From NCBI GenBank assembly GCA_049997875.1, contig JBEKRC010000005.1:1679-65678 (forward strand): 64,000 bases of DNA. Direction: 5' to 3'. The notes below the pieces were generated by a model that saw nothing but the letters and a program-made list of their open reading frames with translations, did not search any database and was not told the origin of the DNA. How positions within the stretch are numbered: position 1 is the stretch's first letter; each line of letters starts with the position of its first letter. This stretch comes from Minisyncoccia bacterium (GTDB lineage Bacteria; Patescibacteriota; Minisyncoccia; UBA6257; 2-01-FULL-56-20). A program made the position numbers and the translations under genes. Shown in pieces: positions 5,499 through 47,939 of this stretch.

Positions 5499-5533
5499 CA
5501 TTTAATAATTTTTTAATGTCCCGCGAGTATAAT
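5499..5533 (+). promoter_or_regulatory. AT-rich promoter motif TTTAATAATTTTTTAATG plus gagTATAAT; near-leaderless for the 5541 gene
   Basis: Motif at 5499-5518 and TATAAT at 5528-5533. The ATG follows 7 nt later. The motif recurs upstream of accessory genes across the window. Confidence 0.5.
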
Positions 5534-26844: not shown

Positions 26845-26846
26845 TG

Positions 26847-26917
26847 TCGGGCCGCCGGGAATTGAACCCGGTCTAAACGCACCCCATGCGCTTGTACTAC
26901 CGGTATACTACGGCCCG
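26847..26917 (-). tRNA. tRNA-Pro (anticodon GGG)
   Basis: Hand-folded 71-nt cloverleaf. Acceptor CGGGCCG/CGGCCCG, U8 A9, D-arm GTAT-ACCGGTA-GTAC, anticodon arm AGCGC-ATGGGGT-GCGTT, variable TAGA, T-arm CCGGG-TTCAATT-CCCGG, discriminator A. CCA is not encoded. Confidence 0.6.
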
Positions 26918-34168: not shown

Positions 34169-34318
34169 AGATTATCTTGAGCGTGGCGAGGGAACTGGCC
34201 CAATGACCCACCGACAACCCCCGGCAATGCGCAATGGCGCGGCGACGAAAAGGTGTCACATCCAGCCCGCAAGGGAAAGATAAAGGTCGCAACGCTTTTC
34301 TTTCGGGAGGGGCGTTTT
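34169..34318 (+). promoter_or_regulatory. SAM-I (S-box) riboswitch with terminator-type expression platform, upstream of metK
   Basis: UUAUCUUGAGCGUGGCGAGGGAACUGGCCCAAUGACCCACCGACAACC...AAAAGGUGUCACAUCCAGC...AAGAUAA matches the S-box core (GAGGGA, UGGCCC, AUGA, GCAACC-like, AAGGUGC..AUCC.GC) and has a complementary P1 strand. A hairpin plus U-run follows at 34290-34318. An extended -10 TGcTATACT lies at 34142-34150. Confidence 0.6.
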
Positions 34319-40833: not shown

Positions 40834-40874
40834 TTTTAATGATTTTTTAATCTTTCGGCGATAAGGAGTATAAT
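40834..40874 (+). promoter_or_regulatory. AT-rich promoter motif TTTTAATGATTTTTTAATC plus gagTATAAT; leaderless for xseB
   Basis: TATAAT at 40869-40874. ATG at 40882. Confidence 0.5.
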
Positions 40875-41819: not shown

Positions 41820-42401
41820 TTAAACCGCCTTCACCGTGAGCTCGTTGCGATAGGGCTCAAGGAGCTCAAGCCGGCCATCGGGCGCGATCCATTCCTTTTC
41901 CCTGCCCGGCGGAAGGATGGCGGGCATCCGGTCGTGGATGGGGGACATGGTCTTGTTCGCGGGCACGGTGATGATGGAGAAGAACGGCCGCATGGCGTCG
42001 GAAAGCGTTTTGGTCCTCCATTCGTAGATCCCTGCGAAGGCCATCGGGCGGTGTTCCAGCGTGAAGCGGTACTTCTCTCTCGCGCCGCCGGTCCTCTTCC
42101 ACTCGTAGAAGCCGTCCGCAAGGACAATGCAGCGATGGTTCTCCACGGCCTTGCGGAAGTAGGGCTTGCCGAGGATGCTTTCGGCCCTGATATTGATGAG
42201 CTCCTTCTTTCTGCCCTTGACCTCGGTGGGATAGCCCCAATGGCCGAGGATTATTTGGTTCGGCTCGCTCGCGAGCACGACGGGCAGGTTTTCGCTCGGG
42301 CGGGCGTCGTCCGTCACGAGATACGCCTCGTGGGGAGGGAGGACGCCGAAGTATTCGGCCAGATTCTTCACGGGGGTGGTGATGGCGTAGCGGCCGCACA
42401 T
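41820..42401 (-). CDS. yedK: SOS-response-associated peptidase (SRAP/YedK, abasic-site crosslinking protein)
   Basis: Starts MCGRYA, with the invariant Cys2. DUF159 pattern throughout. Confidence 0.8.
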   Translation of the reverse strand: MCGRYAITTPVKNLAEYFGVLPPHEAYLVTDDARPSENLPVVLASEPNQIILGHWGYPTEVKGRKKELINIRAESILGKPYFRKAVENHRCIVLADGFYEWKRTGGAREKYRFTLEHRPMAFAGIYEWRTKTLSDAMRPFFSIITVPANKTMSPIHDRMPAILPPGREKEWIAPDGRLELLEPYRNELTVKAV

Positions 42402-42676
42402 GAGGTAACTATAGCGCTCGCCATCAATTTCGCCATTTTCCTGCGCTCCTCTCTGACGTCCATGCACCAGGCGTGGCCTCTCACGGTGATCACAAGTTCA
42501 AGGAATTCGGGGAGGTTTTTCTTGAGAGTTTTGTGGGGAGATTTTTGGTAGAGGGCGAGCTTTTTCTTGGCGCGGTAGTATTCGTCGGGAGACATAGGGT
42601 GATCTTTGATCGGGAGGGGAGGGTGAGTCAAGGGGGTAAGGCCCCAATTGAACATTAAGGAGGAAAGAGGTAGGGT

Positions 42677-42706
42677 TTTAATAAAGATTTAATGATTTTT
42701 TAATCT
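42677..42706 (+). promoter_or_regulatory. AT-rich promoter motif variant TTTTAATAAAGATTTAATGATTTTTTAATC upstream of the NucS-like gene
   Basis: Shares the TTTAATAAAGATTTAATGA variant with the copy at 48041. Confidence 0.4.
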
Positions 42707-42710
42707 TTCC

Positions 42711-43700
42711 ATGGAAAAGGTGGGGCAGCCTATGAACCATTCTTTGTTTGTGCTTACCGCCAGTAATCCTGAAGCGTATCAGCACTATATCGATACGATT
42801 GAGCGTGGCTTTCCTATTAACGATATTAAGGAGTTTCTGAGTGAAGATCAGTATATTGCCCTAAGGAATCTTTGCGGGGAAGAGCATCTTAAGGCTTGGG
42901 GTGCTACCCCGGGGAAGGGTAATATTGCCACTTGGAACAAGATGAATATCGGCGACCCGATCCTTATTTATAGACAAGGTAATTTTGAATATTACGCTTT
43001 TATTGCATTCAAGTTGCATAATGTTGAAATAGCAAAAAAGTTATGGCGGACGAACATAAAGGGAGAAACATGGGAATATGTCTACTTTTTAGATAAGCTG
43101 ACAGAAATTTCGGTTCCGGTGAAAATATTTAACGAAAGCATTGGTTATAAAGACAACTTTACGCCACAGGGTTTTAGTTCTGTTGATAAGAAGAAAGTGG
43201 ATTATTTGAAGGAGAAATTTGGATCGATTGAATCATTTCTTAATTATCTGGCAGAAGGGAAATGGATAGAGAGGGAAACCGCATATCCAAGGGAGGTTAA
43301 GGAGACCATTATTCAAGAAAGAGTTTCTCGACAGCTTGGACGCACCTCTTTACTTGAAGCGAACCTCGAAAATTATTTAGCGGATCGTGTTGCCCAGATT
43401 GAACCCGGTTTGAAATTAATTGGTCGACAGTTGGATACAAAAGAAGTCGGGCGGTTGGATCTGCTTTGTGAAGATAAGGATAAAAATTTGGTGGTCGTTG
43501 AATTGAAGCGGGGAACCGCAGGTTCATCAATTATTGATCAGATTCAGCGATACATGGGTTGGATGATCGCTCATAAGGCTCAGCCGAATCAAAAGGTGAG
43601 AGGCATTGTTATTGTGGCGTCCAAAGATACTGCGCTTGAATATGCGGTCAAAGCTAACCCGATGGTGCAGATAAAGACGTTTAATATCAGCGTGCAATAA
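42711..43700 (+). CDS. NucS/EndoMS-like PD-(D/E)xK nuclease (DUF91) with a non-NucS N-terminal domain, possibly PUA/EVE-like; candidate modification-dependent or defense nuclease
   Basis: C-terminus IEPGLKLIGRQLDTKEVGRLDLLCEDKDKNLVVVELKRGTAGSSIIDQIQRYMGWM...KVRGIVIVAS matches the NucS C-terminal nuclease (IEPGFK...GIVDVLGRDSDGNIVVLELKRRRA...KVRGILVAPS). The N-terminal 190 aa (W..N.GDPILIYRQGN..YYAFIAF) differs from the NucS N-domain. GC is about 38%. Confidence 0.6.
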   Translation: MEKVGQPMNHSLFVLTASNPEAYQHYIDTIERGFPINDIKEFLSEDQYIALRNLCGEEHLKAWGATPGKGNIATWNKMNIGDPILIYRQGNFEYYAFIAFKLHNVEIAKKLWRTNIKGETWEYVYFLDKLTEISVPVKIFNESIGYKDNFTPQGFSSVDKKKVDYLKEKFGSIESFLNYLAEGKWIERETAYPREVKETIIQERVSRQLGRTSLLEANLENYLADRVAQIEPGLKLIGRQLDTKEVGRLDLLCEDKDKNLVVVELKRGTAGSSIIDQIQRYMGWMIAHKAQPNQKVRGIVIVASKDTALEYAVKANPMVQIKTFNISVQ

Positions 43701-43760
43701 GTTTCAGTAAGTGAAGCGTTAGGATGGTATTGTGAGTAAATAAAACCGTAGAAAGATAAG

Positions 43761-44081
43761 ATGATTCATAATAAAAATATTTCTTGGTTGCCTCTAACGA
43801 GTTTCATCTGTCTACTTAGTCTTGTGTTTAGTGTCGGCACAATAATGAACCCTTATATTGGCATTTTCTTTGGTGCGTCGTTTACTATATTAGGCGCCGC
43901 AACAGCAGTTTTCCCTAAAGAGATAGCAGAACTTGGAAGAATGTGGTCGCAAAATATCGAAAGAGAGACACATATTTTCCTTATTGCATTTTCTGTTGCC
44001 TGTGCATTAATATTCTTTTGGGCGCGGTATATCGAAGGCTGGAGAATAAAGATCTATAACATTAATTATTCAAATGAATAA
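43761..44081 (+). CDS. small membrane protein (2-3 TM)
   Basis: 106 aa, very AT-rich. Overlaps the next ORF by 8 nt. Confidence 0.4.
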   Translation: MIHNKNISWLPLTSFICLLSLVFSVGTIMNPYIGIFFGASFTILGAATAVFPKEIAELGRMWSQNIERETHIFLIAFSVACALIFFWARYIEGWRIKIYNINYSNE

Positions 44082-44757
44082 ATATTTAAAAGCAATCATT
44101 CAGGGATTATTTATATTAGGGATTGCTGCATTTGCGATATGGTTTCTCAATCTTTTTATTCCAAAGAACCAAGGTGCAGATGTAGCTAACCGAGTTGCTG
44201 ATCAAGTGAAGCAAATTATCTTAAAAAGGCCGACATGTGCTGGAACGTCCGCAGAATTTGAGCAGTTGAAAGAGCAGGGCGGTTATATCCCGCTTCTGCA
44301 GAGTTCAACTGGCATGTATGGAATAGCAGGCGGCGATTTCGTGAATGAGAAACAAGTTACCGTAAATCGTACAGGGAGTGGTTCAGAGGTTGCTTGTGGA
44401 TATTTATATATCAATGCTGGCGTGGGGAAGAGAGCGCTAGATAATGAAGATGTCTACATAGTTCCGGGGGGATTCGGCGGACATCTACAATCTAGCGCCG
44501 CGATTATTAATCAAATCGTAAATTCGAGTACGGAAATGATTTTTTCCTTGGATAACATACAATACCGCAGCAATAAAAACATGTATACTGCAAACTGGGC
44601 TGCGTTACTAAACGTGTCAAACGAAATTAATTTTGAAATTGCATTGAACACCACTGACCCAAGGGGTTTCATTAATGAGGTCGGAATTGCATACAAATGT
44701 TGGAATCCTCAAACTGGCGATGTAACGACGGACTGTCGCTTAAGTGCTCAGCAATAG
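44074..44757 (+). CDS. N-terminally anchored or secreted protein
   Basis: 227 aa. An N-terminal hydrophobic helix is followed by a Cys-containing domain. Confidence 0.4.
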   Translation: MNKYLKAIIQGLFILGIAAFAIWFLNLFIPKNQGADVANRVADQVKQIILKRPTCAGTSAEFEQLKEQGGYIPLLQSSTGMYGIAGGDFVNEKQVTVNRTGSGSEVACGYLYINAGVGKRALDNEDVYIVPGGFGGHLQSSAAIINQIVNSSTEMIFSLDNIQYRSNKNMYTANWAALLNVSNEINFEIALNTTDPRGFINEVGIAYKCWNPQTGDVTTDCRLSAQQ

Positions 44758-44777
44758 CATATTAAAAGATCTCGAGA

Positions 44778-44803
44778 AATCGTGGCTTTTGCACTTTTAC
44801 GAG
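44778..44803 (+). promoter_or_regulatory. promoter-like TTGCAC-14-gagTATAAT upstream of the large structured RNA
   Basis: ttgcac at 44778-44783 and tataat at 44798-44803. The gagTATAAT -10 form is shared with the cassette promoters. Confidence 0.35.
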
Positions 44804-44811
44804 GAGAGTAT

Positions 44812-45165
44812 AATGAAGCTCGTAGTAGTTCTTTAAAAGCTGGCGGAGAAAACCATCGGGGCCTTATTTAGTTATTCAGAGTTTTTCCCACTCCCCCTCG
44901 TTAGGGCGTTAGAGAGCTAGTGCCTTAACCGGGGGGGGTTGTAGTCGGAACTCTCCGAACAAATTAATCTAACCAACCCTAATGGTTACCTTAACTACGG
45001 GGCAGACGGTGGTTATTTCGGGCATCTACCAGGTGCGCGGAACCAACTACCAGGTTACTCTCTCGCGCGGAGATCGCGTGCCACCCTACAACGGGAGGGC
45101 AGCGACCTTCGTTCTGGTCGTTTCGGCCAGACACGAACAGTAATGTTCTGCCGTTCTTCGCCAGC
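44812..45165 (+). ncRNA. roughly 350-nt structured non-coding RNA of unknown class
   Basis: 435-nt ORF-free interval between convergent genes. GC is higher than the flanking genes. Perfect 12-bp long-range helix taaaagctggcg (44824-44835) / cgccagctttta (45149-45160). Many internal hairpins (tcgga-actct-ccga, aacca-accctaa-tggtt, tctgg-tcgtttcgg-ccaga, cgcg-gagat-cgcg) and repeated CTACCAGG segments. No RNase P, tmRNA or 6S hallmark motifs were found. Confidence 0.5.
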
Positions 45166-45192
45166 TTTTAGAGAGATACTTTGATAAAAGAG

Positions 45193-46092
45193 TCAGCCGA
45201 TCGGACTATTTTTCGGAGCTTCAATTTTTAACGACAACTCAGTCATCGCGTAGTGAACAAATTGTTGTCCGATGCCAGTTAATTCATATTGTTCCTCTTC
45301 GTCGAATGCAGATTTGGCAGTATGCGTCCCTGAACTTTTTGGTGTTCTCCCTGTAGCTCTTGATACAATTATATTTCCCGCATAATCTCTATCTTTATGT
45401 TGTCGAATTATGGCACCAGTGCTTAAGTCGCGGAAAAGAAGCTTGAACAAATCTGCTTCTGGGGAATCTTCTCTAACGGGTTGTTTGCCTAGCTGTCTCC
45501 AAACTTCTCCTCTGGTTATTCCATTTTTGTTATAAATTACTCCTATAACTTTGAAATGAAGTTCAGAATAATTTTTGAGCCAATCGAGAAAGAGCTTTAT
45601 GACATCATCGCTCACTAGCGCGGTTGCCGCGGCATTAGAAAGAATATTTCTTATTAATTTCCTTTTCTCTTCACTTTCAGCTCCGGACCATTCCCGAAAT
45701 GCTTTTTTAACAATGGACTGATATTCCGGACTCTTCATTCGTTCTCCGATCTTTGCATCGTGCATATCAAGGCGAGCCATGATCTCTACGATGGTTTGTT
45801 CTTTTTCCCGCATTTCATCAAAGAGCATTCGTAGCCAATGTTTAAAGAAGGCATTCGCTCTTTCCTGATCATGACCTTCCCACGCGCTCGCGGCCGCAGA
45901 GAAGATTCCGCCTATGACGGGAATTGCCCCTCCTGCAATTTCCATACCTGCTTGCAAGACTTTCTTGCCGAGTTTTGGTTTGTGGTCGGAAGCAATCGTC
46001 GCAATCACTTTGCCACAAAACGGACAATTTTCGGATAAGTAAGGTATTTCCTTGCCGCATTCGCCACACTTTATTGGTTCCATGTTTTCCAT
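45193..46092 (-). CDS. hypothetical protein with N-terminal zinc-ribbon
   Basis: KCGECGKEIPYLSENCPFCGK at the N-terminus, then a roughly 270-aa soluble domain of unknown function. Convergent with the ncRNA. Confidence 0.5.
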   Translation of the reverse strand: MENMEPIKCGECGKEIPYLSENCPFCGKVIATIASDHKPKLGKKVLQAGMEIAGGAIPVIGGIFSAAASAWEGHDQERANAFFKHWLRMLFDEMREKEQTIVEIMARLDMHDAKIGERMKSPEYQSIVKKAFREWSGAESEEKRKLIRNILSNAAATALVSDDVIKLFLDWLKNYSELHFKVIGVIYNKNGITRGEVWRQLGKQPVREDSPEADLFKLLFRDLSTGAIIRQHKDRDYAGNIIVSRATGRTPKSSGTHTAKSAFDEEEQYELTGIGQQFVHYAMTELSLKIEAPKNSPIG

Positions 46093-46162
46093 CCTATACC
46101 CCCGTCGGGGTTCGTCAATCCAAACGATTTACAAAACCGTTCTGAGGTGATACCATCCGGCC

Positions 46163-46642
46163 ATGAGCACAAAGGAGCTTGTCGCGGAAATAGAGAAACG
46201 CTTTGAGATTATATTGCCCATATCAATCTTTTTTCCAGTTCTGATGGCCACGTATTTTGATATTGTTGGTGGACCGGACAAAGATTATCATACCGCGTTC
46301 ATATTTTTTGCCCTGCCGGCGCTCTATATCGCAAGCTATGTTATCTTCGAGCTTCGTAAAATTTTACCACCTATCCCGCCGTTGGCGCTTCAAGTATTGG
46401 ACTGGAGCCTGTTGCTGAACATTCTTTGTTTCGCTGCACCCGTCATATTCGTTGTCATGGCATATGCTCATGTGACGCTCTCGCGGTGGACTTATTTGGT
46501 TGATCTGTGGACTTTCATCGGCTCAGGGTGGGGAGTAGTTACTTTGCCGTTTGCCATTTTCCTTTTTGTTATCGCGAGTGAAGCGATTGCTATAGCAGCG
46601 AAAGTTATAGGTAAACAGTGGGCAAATAAAAAGATTTTCTAA
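46163..46642 (+). CDS. hypothetical membrane protein (4 TM)
   Basis: 159 aa, hydrophobic. Confidence 0.45.
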   Translation: MSTKELVAEIEKRFEIILPISIFFPVLMATYFDIVGGPDKDYHTAFIFFALPALYIASYVIFELRKILPPIPPLALQVLDWSLLLNILCFAAPVIFVVMAYAHVTLSRWTYLVDLWTFIGSGWGVVTLPFAIFLFVIASEAIAIAAKVIGKQWANKKIF

Positions 46643-46669
46643 TTAAAGACAGGCTTGGACATGGATTCG

Positions 46670-46829: not shown

Positions 46830-47939
46830 ATGAGAATTGTTGCGCACATAGACCTAGACGCTTTCTTTGCGGCGATAGAAGAAAGAGACAGAACGCGGTT
46901 GAGGGGGTTGCCGATTGTGGTGGGCGCGGATCCGGAGGAGGGGCGGGGACGGGGGGTTGTGTCTACGGCGAATTATAAGGCGCGGGAATATGGGATCCGG
47001 TCTGCTTTGCCGATCGCGACGGCGTGGCGATATTCGGAGGCGGCACGGAGGAAGGGGCTCGCGCCTGCGGTCTTTCTTGGGGTTGATATGGAAAAATATG
47101 CGGAGGAGTCGCGGCGCGTGATGGGGATCGTGCGCGAGGTTTTGGGGGCCACGGCGCTTGTGGAAGAGGCGTCGGTGGACGAGGCGTTTATTGATCTATC
47201 CTTTGCGGGTACCTACCTGCGCGCGGAGGCGGTGGCGCGTGAGGTGAAGCGCGCGATCAAAGAAAGAACGGGACTCACGGCATCCGTGGGCGTGGGGCCG
47301 AACAAGCTTATTGCGAAGATCGCCTCGGACCGGGAGAAGCCGGACGGGTTCACGCTCGTGCGCGAAGAGGATGCGGAAAAATTCCTTGAGCCCTTGCCGA
47401 TCCGCACGATCCCGGGCGTGGGACCGAAAACCGAGGCGCGGTTCAGGGAGCTCCGCGTGCGCACGGTGGGGGATGCAAAGCGCTTCTCGCGTGAGGAGCT
47501 TACGGAGATGCTGGGCAAGTGGGGCGCGGAACTTTATGAAAAACTGCGCGGGCGGGACGAGTCGCCGCTCGTTACGGAGTGGATCGCGAAGTCTGTGGGG
47601 GAGCAGGAGACCTTTCCGCACGACACGCACGATCCGAAGTTCCTGCGCGAGCGGCTGGCGGCGCTTGCGGCGGGGGTCTACGCGCGGTTCGCGGCCGAGG
47701 CCCGGGCGGGGCACTTTAAAAGCTTCCGCGGCGTCACGATCACCGTCCGCTTCGCGGATTTCACGACCGTCACGCGCGCGGCGACGCTTGATGAGCCCGT
47801 CGTGGCCCGCGACCCCGCGGCGCTTCAAACACTCCAGTTCCAGGCCTTGCGCCTCTTCATGCCCTTCCTTGACCGCCGCGAGAATCCCGCGCGCAAGGCC
47901 TTCCGGCTCCTCGGGGTGCGCGTGGAGAAGCTGGGTTAG
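46830..47939 (+). CDS. dinB: DNA polymerase IV (Y-family translesion polymerase)
   Basis: MRIVAHIDLDAFFAAIEERDRTRLRGLPIVVG...STANYKAREYGIRSALPIATA. Confidence 0.85.
   Translation: MRIVAHIDLDAFFAAIEERDRTRLRGLPIVVGADPEEGRGRGVVSTANYKAREYGIRSALPIATAWRYSEAARRKGLAPAVFLGVDMEKYAEESRRVMGIVREVLGATALVEEASVDEAFIDLSFAGTYLRAEAVAREVKRAIKERTGLTASVGVGPNKLIAKIASDREKPDGFTLVREEDAEKFLEPLPIRTIPGVGPKTEARFRELRVRTVGDAKRFSREELTEMLGKWGAELYEKLRGRDESPLVTEWIAKSVGEQETFPHDTHDPKFLRERLAALAAGVYARFAAEARAGHFKSFRGVTITVRFADFTTVTRAATLDEPVVARDPAALQTLQFQALRLFMPFLDRRENPARKAFRLLGVRVEKLG

Follow-up and report, generated by a model that had tools for sequence, protein, structure and literature searches.

An end-paired messenger RNA architecture predicted around a YjzC-like small gene in Patescibacteria

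The 64,000 nucleotides (nt) of a Minisyncoccia bacterium analysed here (GenBank assembly GCA_049997875.1, contig JBEKRC010000005.1, positions 1,679 to 65,678; hereafter the window) contain a structured element between two convergent genes. We read this element, with a probability of about 0.6, as a self-contained small-gene cassette in which a structured messenger RNA (mRNA) with paired ends encodes a small protein, and not as the gene of a non-coding RNA (ncRNA). The unit consists of a sigma-70 promoter, the 5' arm of a long helix (P1), a hairpin leader of ~135 nt, an open reading frame (ORF), a spacer of 10-20 nt and the 3' arm of P1 (Table 1). Judged from sequence comparison, it combines a YjzC-like gene with an end-paired mRNA architecture that covaries strongly and has not been catalogued; the unit is widespread in Patescibacteria and is found repeatedly next to lexA.

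The convergent genes (44074-44757 on the plus strand and 45193-46092 on the minus strand) leave 435 nt between them (44758-45192). An original prediction, made by a model from the letters alone, had placed an independently promoted, structured ncRNA of roughly 350 nt in this interval and had stated correctly that it holds no ORF of 60 codons or more. The unit is indeed discrete, about 360 nt long, independently promoted and closed by a helix, but it is not non-coding; the largest ORF in the interval has 53 codons, and it is a conserved gene that fills the 3' half of the element. The octamer CTACCAGG does occur twice, as had been noted (45026-45033 and 45047-45054). It is not the potential pseudoknot element that had been suggested, however, and supplies the ORF codons for I-Y-Q-V and N-Y-Q-V.

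The evidence for the gene comes from its homologues. A word-indexed search found one relative of the protein, P0175, which is 89% identical and is encoded on a 3.2-kb contig, locus L157 (loci are numbered in this way throughout). There the element sits between genes other than those in the window, namely DUF3761 and HEPN genes. Homology between the two copies begins about 10 nt before the TATAAT box and ends at the 3' arm of P1, and the flanks are unrelated. The two ORFs differ by 13 synonymous codons, among them an Arg that changes from AGG to CGC, and by 6 non-synonymous ones; the differences in the helix and the leader hairpin are compensatory. An exhaustive HMMER search recovered 18 representative homologues at E<=1e-3, mostly of 50-57 amino acids (aa), which have the motif TGQ...SG.Y...EITL.KGDRVPPY..(A)A.F.LV in common. 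The reading frame is open at 50-59 codons in 33 of 36 full-length homologues, and the entropies at codon positions 1, 2 and 3 of the homologue alignment are 0.46, 0.41 and 1.40 bits. This pattern of substitution shows the ORF to be a genuine gene under purifying selection.

P1 is built around a perfect 12-bp inverted repeat, taaaagctggcg / cgccagctttta, which is the core of 27-nt arms that are 85% complementary. By our own estimate, about 0.006 perfect 12-bp inverted repeats are expected by chance in 435 nt. The original prediction had seen this closing helix but had placed it 10 nt too far upstream, at 44824-44835 and 45149-45160 in place of the core positions in Table 1. The plus strand of 44815-45185 has a minimum free energy (MFE) of -163.4 kcal/mol versus -115.2 +/- 6.1 for dinucleotide shuffles (z = -7.9), and the MFE structure contains 143 pairs, of which 20 are G-U; the minus strand of the same segment gives z = -5.1. 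P1 had been likened to the closing helices of large ribozymes. This is a resemblance only, and the architecture is that of an mRNA whose 5' and 3' ends are paired.

Covariation was evaluated on 36 distinct full-length copies aligned with MAFFT by sequence alone and fitted to no structure (alignment A5, to which the P1 columns below refer). RNAalifold finds a 23-bp P1 in it, joining columns 35-57 to columns 426-448, with 96% of the cells paired. The homologous regions covary, with compensatory changes on both sides in 20 of the 23 pairs. Columns 48/435, for example, are UA in 20 sequences, AU in 14 and CG and GC in one each, with no broken pair among the 36, and columns 52/431 are AU in 20, GC in 15 and GU in one. 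When P1 is taken together with the apical helix of the leader, 95.2% of the cells are paired and 254 cells carry double changes, versus 42-57% and 34-53 when the partner is slid by 1-3 columns, and none of 500 shuffles equalled the observed values. G-U pairs make up 114 of the 828 P1 cells (14%) and are the majority in some column pairs, for example 42/441 (UG in 22 of 36) and 37/446 (GU in 23 of 36); pairing is 96.0% on the plus strand versus 82.2% when P1 is read on the minus strand. A G-U content of 14% points to selection on the plus-strand RNA and not on DNA repeats. The covariation shows that P1 and the apical leader helix are maintained by such selection.

Loci whose DNA match covers only the ORF still have a helix of ~17-25 bp, of different sequence; one side of it lies ~80-145 nt upstream of the ATG and the other just past the stop codon. 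The long helix is absent from a handful of diverged loci (L161, L208, L210, L228 and L232). Across the ORF half of the 36-copy alignment there is no conserved RNA structure. The interior of the element had been described as dense in hairpins, and those predicted in the 3' half are not conserved. Occlusion of the AUG by the segment that follows P1 was considered as a family trait and rejected, as it is seen in the window and L157 and not in the other homologues.

The region belongs to no catalogued RNA class that was searched for. Rfam 15 at the gathering threshold, including RNase P, tmRNA (transfer-messenger RNA), 6S, SRP, OLE, GOLLD, ROOL, HEARO and hok/sok-type families, gave no match in the region, and at E<=10 only chance matches to eukaryotic families appeared (mir-324 and DLEU2_6). 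The same search on 15 homologous loci gave nothing over the element, and L168 gave nothing at E<=1. ARAGORN finds no tmRNA or tRNA in the region; its sole match in the window is a tRNA-Pro(GGG) at 26846-26917 on the minus strand. Together with this tRNA, a SAM-I riboswitch at 34169-34286 on the plus strand (51.7 bits) accounts for all Rfam and ARAGORN matches in the window. A retron was also looked for, and there is no reverse transcriptase among the neighbours and the enclosed RNA is coding. The original prediction was thus right that the class is not recognisable and that RNase P, tmRNA and 6S features are lacking. Its own view, a novel class of structured RNA of ~350 nt in which the 53-codon ORF is fortuitous, is consistent with these negative searches, with the z score of the fold, with the covariation of P1 and the leader and with the lack of a Shine-Dalgarno (SD) sequence before the ATG. 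It is nevertheless hardly credible. The frame is kept open in the homologues, conservation is codon-periodic with mostly synonymous changes, the protein family is recovered by protein-only searches and has a confident structural model, and the half of the RNA that contains the ORF lacks conserved structure.

The wider family was collected with back-translated patterns from a 7-sequence protein alignment, which gave 80 metagenome loci, mostly from groundwater or aquifer samples. In about 45 of these, the nhmmer match to the 391 nt of the window element covers the element in full, from one P1 arm to the other. The geometry is tightly held. P1 and the ATG are 122-151 nt apart, and the stop codon lies 10-20 nt from P1 (median 13, 33 homologues). 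Of the 36 homologues, 27 have a TATAAT-like box, which in the median ends 10 nt before P1 and in several is preceded by TTGnnn-N17; in the window the -10 box likewise ends 10 nt before the family-level P1. Among the 12 nt that follow P1 the median number of T is 6, and tails of the GGGGAUUUUU type are found in the majority clade. Taken together, these loci show a discrete module that recurs in many unrelated neighbourhoods on metagenome contigs of Patescibacteria. The window itself comes from a metagenome-assembled genome found in peat metagenomes, and eleven contigs (one of them truncated) carry an identical copy of the region. Three copies deviate from the family: L224 (394-561) has an in-frame TAG where others have GAG, L212 has an apparent GTG start, and the ORF of L236 contains a deletion. 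They may be decaying copies or assembly errors.

Sharp boundaries, a recurrence in many unrelated contexts, 27-nt arms with 85% complementarity and a location in an AT-rich accessory island could also describe a mobile cassette acting at the DNA level, such as a miniature inverted-repeat transposable element (MITE). The arms would then be terminal inverted repeats used by a transposase in trans and the RNA fold would be incidental. The G-U pairs are difficult to reconcile with this explanation, as they break the identity of the DNA repeats and keep plus-strand RNA pairing, and the arm sequences covary freely between lineages where a binding site would be conserved. Moreover, the element is single-copy within the 64-kb window, the promoter lies outside the arms at a fixed distance, no target-site duplication was seen on reading the window flanks, and no transposase family was found among the shared ORF clusters, of which a sample was scanned against Pfam. 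A MITE is therefore very improbable.

The promoter-like site of the window agrees with the original prediction (TTGCAC-N14-gagTATAAT), as does the recurrence of its -10 form: GAGTATAAT is present in 5 copies in the window versus 0.14 expected. All copies are on the plus strand, at positions 5525, 6102, 19333, 40866 and 44806. The copy at 40866 is preceded by G, which creates a GGAG about 10 nt upstream of the ATG called for a gene of 68 aa, and it may act as an SD-like site instead of a -10 box. The higher GC content that had been claimed for the interval is also found, 0.55 at 44900-45199 versus 0.36-0.44 on either side.

The leader (domain A) is an irregular hairpin whose conserved apical part spans 44890-44939. 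There a C-run (44893-44897) pairs with a G-run (44931-44938), and a variable tip hairpin lies at 44900-44929. This C5/G5 helix is invariant in the family leader of ~135 nt. With the variable tip included, pairing in the apical helix reaches 93.9%, double changes occur in 11 of the 15 pairs, and a G-U pair at columns 73/99 is conserved in 36 of 49 sequences. A covariance model of the leader (R1) scores 54.6 bits (E = 6e-8) on the plus strand of the window at 44852-44985 and 29.9 bits on the minus strand; its best match overall has ~131 bits on the plus strand versus 38 on the minus strand. R1 places the leader directly upstream of the ORF in 48 loci, of which 17 are outside the seed. The MAFFT alignment does not resolve the lower stems, for which the covariance model was only a partial help. 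A short leader ORF after the G-run was considered and rejected, as the window clade has a UUG-UAG that lies too near the G-run, and a start codon is lacking at this place in the majority clade.

An invariant helix with a conserved G-U pair is typical of protein recognition sites. It has to be considered that translation is repressed by binding of the small protein to the C5/G5 hairpin, or by binding of another partner (a ribosomal protein or a different RNA-binding one), and that P1 is only a stabiliser or terminator. The tightly held leader length fits such an autoregulatory leader, and a beta-rich protein of 50-57 aa with an isoelectric point (pI) of ~10 resembles small RNA-binding proteins in size and charge. 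RNA binding by this protein is conjectural, however, and Foldseek found no structural homologue for it in the PDB. The YjzC family has no known function (PMC3912914), and a P1 that encloses the whole mRNA would be left unexplained. We regard this explanation as unlikely.

The only Pfam match of the window protein is YjzC (PF14168), at 12.3 bits versus a gathering cut-off of 25 (E = 0.23). Among 16 family members 12 match the YjzC hidden Markov model weakly at E<=1, the best at E = 4.9e-4. The YjzC proteins, which include B. subtilis YjzC and M. tuberculosis Rv1954A, are of similar size (~55 aa). B. subtilis YjzC presumably has the motif G-x(5)-SG-x-Y ... L-x-x-GD-R-x-PP in common with the window family. 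The window protein is at best a distant relative of YjzC. AlphaFold (AF2) gives a confident, soluble-looking, all-beta model with a pLDDT (predicted local distance difference test) of 94.5. The pI is ~10 in 11 of 12 members, the grand average of hydropathy (GRAVY) ranges from about -0.8 to 0.05, and there is no hydrophobic segment, the maximum 19-residue Kyte-Doolittle window being <=0.77. A sequence search of the PDB with the small protein returned only noise, and the large proteins that match the peptide (P0182, P0185 and P0190) offered no functional clue. There is no SD motif before the ATG of the window ORF. This was at first counted as an anomaly of the small gene, a point that was dropped because most genes of the genome also lack one. 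Among 21 gene starts in 38.3-50.7 kb most have no recognisable SD upstream of the called start, which suggests low SD usage in this Minisyncoccia genome.

Two reports bear on the setting of YjzC genes. In B. subtilis, yjzC is listed with a cis-antisense RNA (PMC4374534), and Rv1954A, which is YjzC-like, heads the higBA operon of M. tuberculosis (PMC3912914). None of the literature that was found describes a structured mRNA with paired ends for YjzC genes.

The loci of the element have no neighbouring gene that is common to all of them. In 10 loci, which represent 8 distinct sequences, the element adjoins lexA, and at least three arrangements are seen. The lexA gene is directly upstream and co-oriented in L172, L180/184, L188, L216 and L226, where the element has no separate promoter, and it is divergent from the element in L178, L183/185 and L200. 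In the divergent lexA-element promoters an exact 19-nt motif, TAGAAAATAAATAGAAAGT, which contains a TAGAAA direct repeat, follows immediately after the -10 box in three independent loci (Table 1). It faces lexA in a single locus and the element in two, which suggests common control of lexA and the element in these loci. Another repeat, TTCGG-N7/8-TTCGG, lies inside the lexA promoters of L172, L180, L188 and L226. Both repeats are candidate LexA operators of these Patescibacteria lineages. The 64-kb window contains neither TAGAAAATAAATAGAAAGT nor lexA. Further neighbours of the element are methylases and Mrr and ResIII genes.

Table 1. Coordinates of the element in the window (position 1 is the first nucleotide of the 64,000) and of a shared promoter motif in other loci
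Feature	Position	Strand	Remarks
Promoter-like site	44789..44814	+	TTGCAC (-35, 44789-44794), 14-nt spacer, gagTATAAT (-10 = TATAAT, 44809-44814)
P1 5' arm	44824..44850	+	Perfect core 44834-44845; family-conserved part 44825-44847; from inverted repeat and MFE helices
5' leader (domain A)	44851..44981	+	Irregular hairpin of ~130 nt; from MFE and covariance model
ORF, 53 codons and stop	44982..45143	+	Encodes MVTLTTGQTVVISGIYQVRGTNYQVTLSRGDRVPPYNGRAATFVLVVSARHEQ; basic, all-beta, YjzC-like small protein
Spacer from stop to P1 3' arm	45144..45153	+	10 nt to the extended helix of the window, 13 nt to family-level P1
P1 3' arm	45154..45180	+	Perfect core 45159-45170; family-conserved part 45157-45179
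TAGAAAATAAATAGAAAGT sites	L178 2059-2077; L183/L185 2285-2303; L200 1353-1371		Three independent loci

The closest working analogy for the element is provided by the end-paired mRNAs of type I toxins. In T1TAdb, 5'-3' long-distance interactions, 5' stem-loops and terminator stem-loops are given as key determinants of type I toxin mRNAs (PMC8594479), and end-pairing in the mRNAs of small type I toxin ORFs is also described elsewhere (PMC5416894, PMC9841398). Like hok, with its fbi/tac pairing, and H. pylori aapA1, the element has its own promoter, an ORF of fewer than 60 codons and a 5'-3' helix that would compact the full-length transcript. There are several differences, however. The hok and aapA1 genes encode hydrophobic membrane peptides, whereas the protein here is basic, soluble and all-beta. 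The element has no sequence or Rfam relationship to either system, no sequestration by SD/anti-SD pairing, and no antitoxin RNA that could be identified on reading the alignment. P1 is also much longer here (23-27 bp) and apparently compatible with ongoing translation.

The analogy could be taken literally, and the element would then be a type I toxin-antitoxin-like module in which a stable end-paired mRNA encodes a growth-inhibiting protein under the control of a putative antisense RNA from within the unit or of 3' processing, as in hok/Sok and aapA1/IsoA1. The element stands alone, carries a promoter and a small ORF and has a long-distance 5'-3' helix, which are hallmarks of such systems (PMC8594479), and the YjzC-like Rv1954A heads a higBA-TAC operon (PMC3912914). 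Defence or restriction genes often adjoin the element, and both strands of the C5/G5 helix in the leader are extremely conserved. The adjacency of lexA in 8 distinct loci is also relevant here, as LexA likewise controls tisB and dinQ, which are type I toxins, and symE, which is SOS-induced. This reading is nonetheless doubtful, and we judge it no more probable than the autoregulatory leader. The protein is basic and not hydrophobic, and its model is all-beta. Reading of the alignment gave no convincing, consistently placed antisense promoter, and in a genome largely without SD sequences there is no SD/anti-SD lock and the AUG region is fairly open. The stop-to-P1 spacing, moreover, suggests that translation is compatible with an intact P1.

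We prefer the small-gene cassette, and the following mechanism is proposed for it. In P1 the outermost 5' nucleotides of the mRNA would be paired with its 3' end, so that both ends are hidden in a near-blunt duplex, and the transcript would fold into a compact three-way junction formed by P1, the leader hairpin and the ORF loop. Such end pairing may give a long-lived mRNA that is independent of its genomic context. In most family members, though not in the window copy, P1 and the U-run that follows it could act as a terminator. P1 could also be a site for RNase III, which would release the module from read-through transcripts, for example directly downstream of lexA; its 23-27 bp reach the length required by this enzyme (~20 bp or more of near-perfect double-stranded RNA). 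The constrained spacing of 10-20 nt between the stop codon and P1 is about the length that a terminating ribosome covers, as known from ribosome footprints, so that a ribosome could arrive at the stop codon with P1 still closed. Translation would then proceed on a closed loop while the leader hairpin, with a putative partner, tunes initiation. The leader may serve in protein binding, as the target of an antisense RNA or as a sensor.

Parts of this mechanism have counterparts in other systems. RNase III stems bracket the ribosomal RNAs (rRNAs) and the early mRNAs of phage T7, where flanking sequences form a long, near-perfect helix. By analogy, a helix of at least 20 bp encloses the whole unit here. 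What this helix encloses, however, is one small mRNA that is transcribed from a promoter-like site of its own, and its cleavage is a prediction. As in intrinsic terminators, a U-run follows the 3' arm in most members (median 6 T of 12), and as in the stabiliser hairpins at mRNA 5' ends, such as the ompA leader, the 5' arm lies within a few nt of the predicted transcript start. The element differs from both in that the arms are ~300 nt apart and one helix would serve both roles, and the window copy has no U-run.

Several observations weigh against the cassette as described. The unpaired probability of the start-codon region is 0.2-0.6 across homologues versus ~0.3 overall, so this region is not consistently sequestered and a hok-like translational lock is conjectural; in most homologues the AUG region is at least as open as the remainder of the RNA. 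The terminator role fails for some members, as the window copy has the tail TACTTTGATAAA after P1 with no U-run, and the terminator scan found no site. In the subgroup downstream of lexA, P1 is not at the 5' end of the transcript. The lower stems of the leader are paired in only 59-75% of cases in the model-fitted alignment. The window promoter is suboptimal, with an off-consensus 14-nt spacer, and the promoter scan reports no site there because this spacer is too short for a consensus scan. Foldseek finds no significant neighbour of the protein model in the PDB (nothing below E = 0.79). The transcript ends, the stability, the cleavage by RNase III and the level of translation are all inferred.

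The element lies in an AT-rich stretch of ~4 kb (42600-46650, ~40% GC versus 55-65% around it), which is bounded by a gene for an SOS-response-associated peptidase (SRAP; 41820-42467, minus strand) and by dinB (46830-47939, plus strand) and which looks like an accessory or defence islet. It encodes a 329-aa protein (42711-43700, plus strand) with a C-terminal NucS_C/PD-(D/E)XK nuclease domain, which matches PDC-S02, a candidate defence family of PADLOC (E = 1e-20), and a 159-aa membrane protein. Two overlapping genes at 43761-44757 (plus strand) encode a membrane protein of 106 aa and a protein of 227 aa. They are a conserved pair that is confined to Patescibacteria-type contigs (53 homologues) and is elsewhere followed by an N6/N4 DNA methylase. 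Linkage of the element to the 227-aa gene was considered and rejected, as the loci of its relatives (L103-L108) lack the element and a methylase gene follows. In one of these relatives, L107 (79% protein identity), a clean terminator hairpin, CCCTCGA-GAAA-TCGGGGG-TTTT, follows the 227-aa gene (L107 865-905). Its counterpart in the window at 44765-44790 has decayed (TCTCGA-GAAA-TCGTGG). A TATAAT box comes after the hairpin in both, and before the L107 contig ends just past this box, the decayed terminator and a TATAAT are all that the two have in common.

On the other side of the element, the gene at 45193-46092 (minus strand) encodes a 299-aa protein that has a zinc ribbon at its N terminus and a membrane segment with a glycine zipper but matches no Pfam domain. 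More than 2400 homologues of 55-70% identity occur in very distant phyla (Patescibacteria, Planctomycetes, Bacteroidales, Shewanella, Rhizobium and others), and their genes are usually solitary among defence-type genes (Cap17-like, ThiF/E2, toxin-antitoxin). The gene looks like an uncharacterised, horizontally spreading single-gene system. Linkage of the element to this gene was likewise rejected, as similar DNA adjoins it in none of 86 loci (L012-L091 and L092-L097). With BLAST, the region had no real counterpart in collections of phages and plasmids. Viral contigs were also scanned for the exact patterns of the closing helix, an internal hairpin and the arm; the 5, 0 and 48 matches, respectively, were all due to chance (seed-only or coding).

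What might such an architecture be for? A more far-reaching proposal, which we hold tentatively and at well below even odds, is that the element represents an undescribed closed-loop class of Patescibacteria mRNAs, closed by a covarying helix of at least 23 bp, that is wired to lexA in several lineages. It could then be a novel, non-hydrophobic effector, SOS-linked and RNA-locked, which would work as a type I toxin does but with a soluble toxin, or a device for ribosome re-initiation in SD-poor organisms, which would keep terminating ribosomes next to the start codon.

The finding corrects an annotation trap, in that a structured region that appears intergenic holds a 53-aa gene just under common ORF cut-offs. 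It also adds a conserved cis-acting RNA architecture, an end-pairing helix with a leader of ~135 nt, that has no Rfam entry. To our knowledge, almost no RNA regulation has been studied experimentally in Patescibacteria. The recurrent adjacency of lexA offers a testable tie between the element and the DNA-damage response in these reduced genomes. End-pairing of mRNAs, hitherto a hallmark of type I toxins, would be extended by this family to a soluble, basic, YjzC-like protein.

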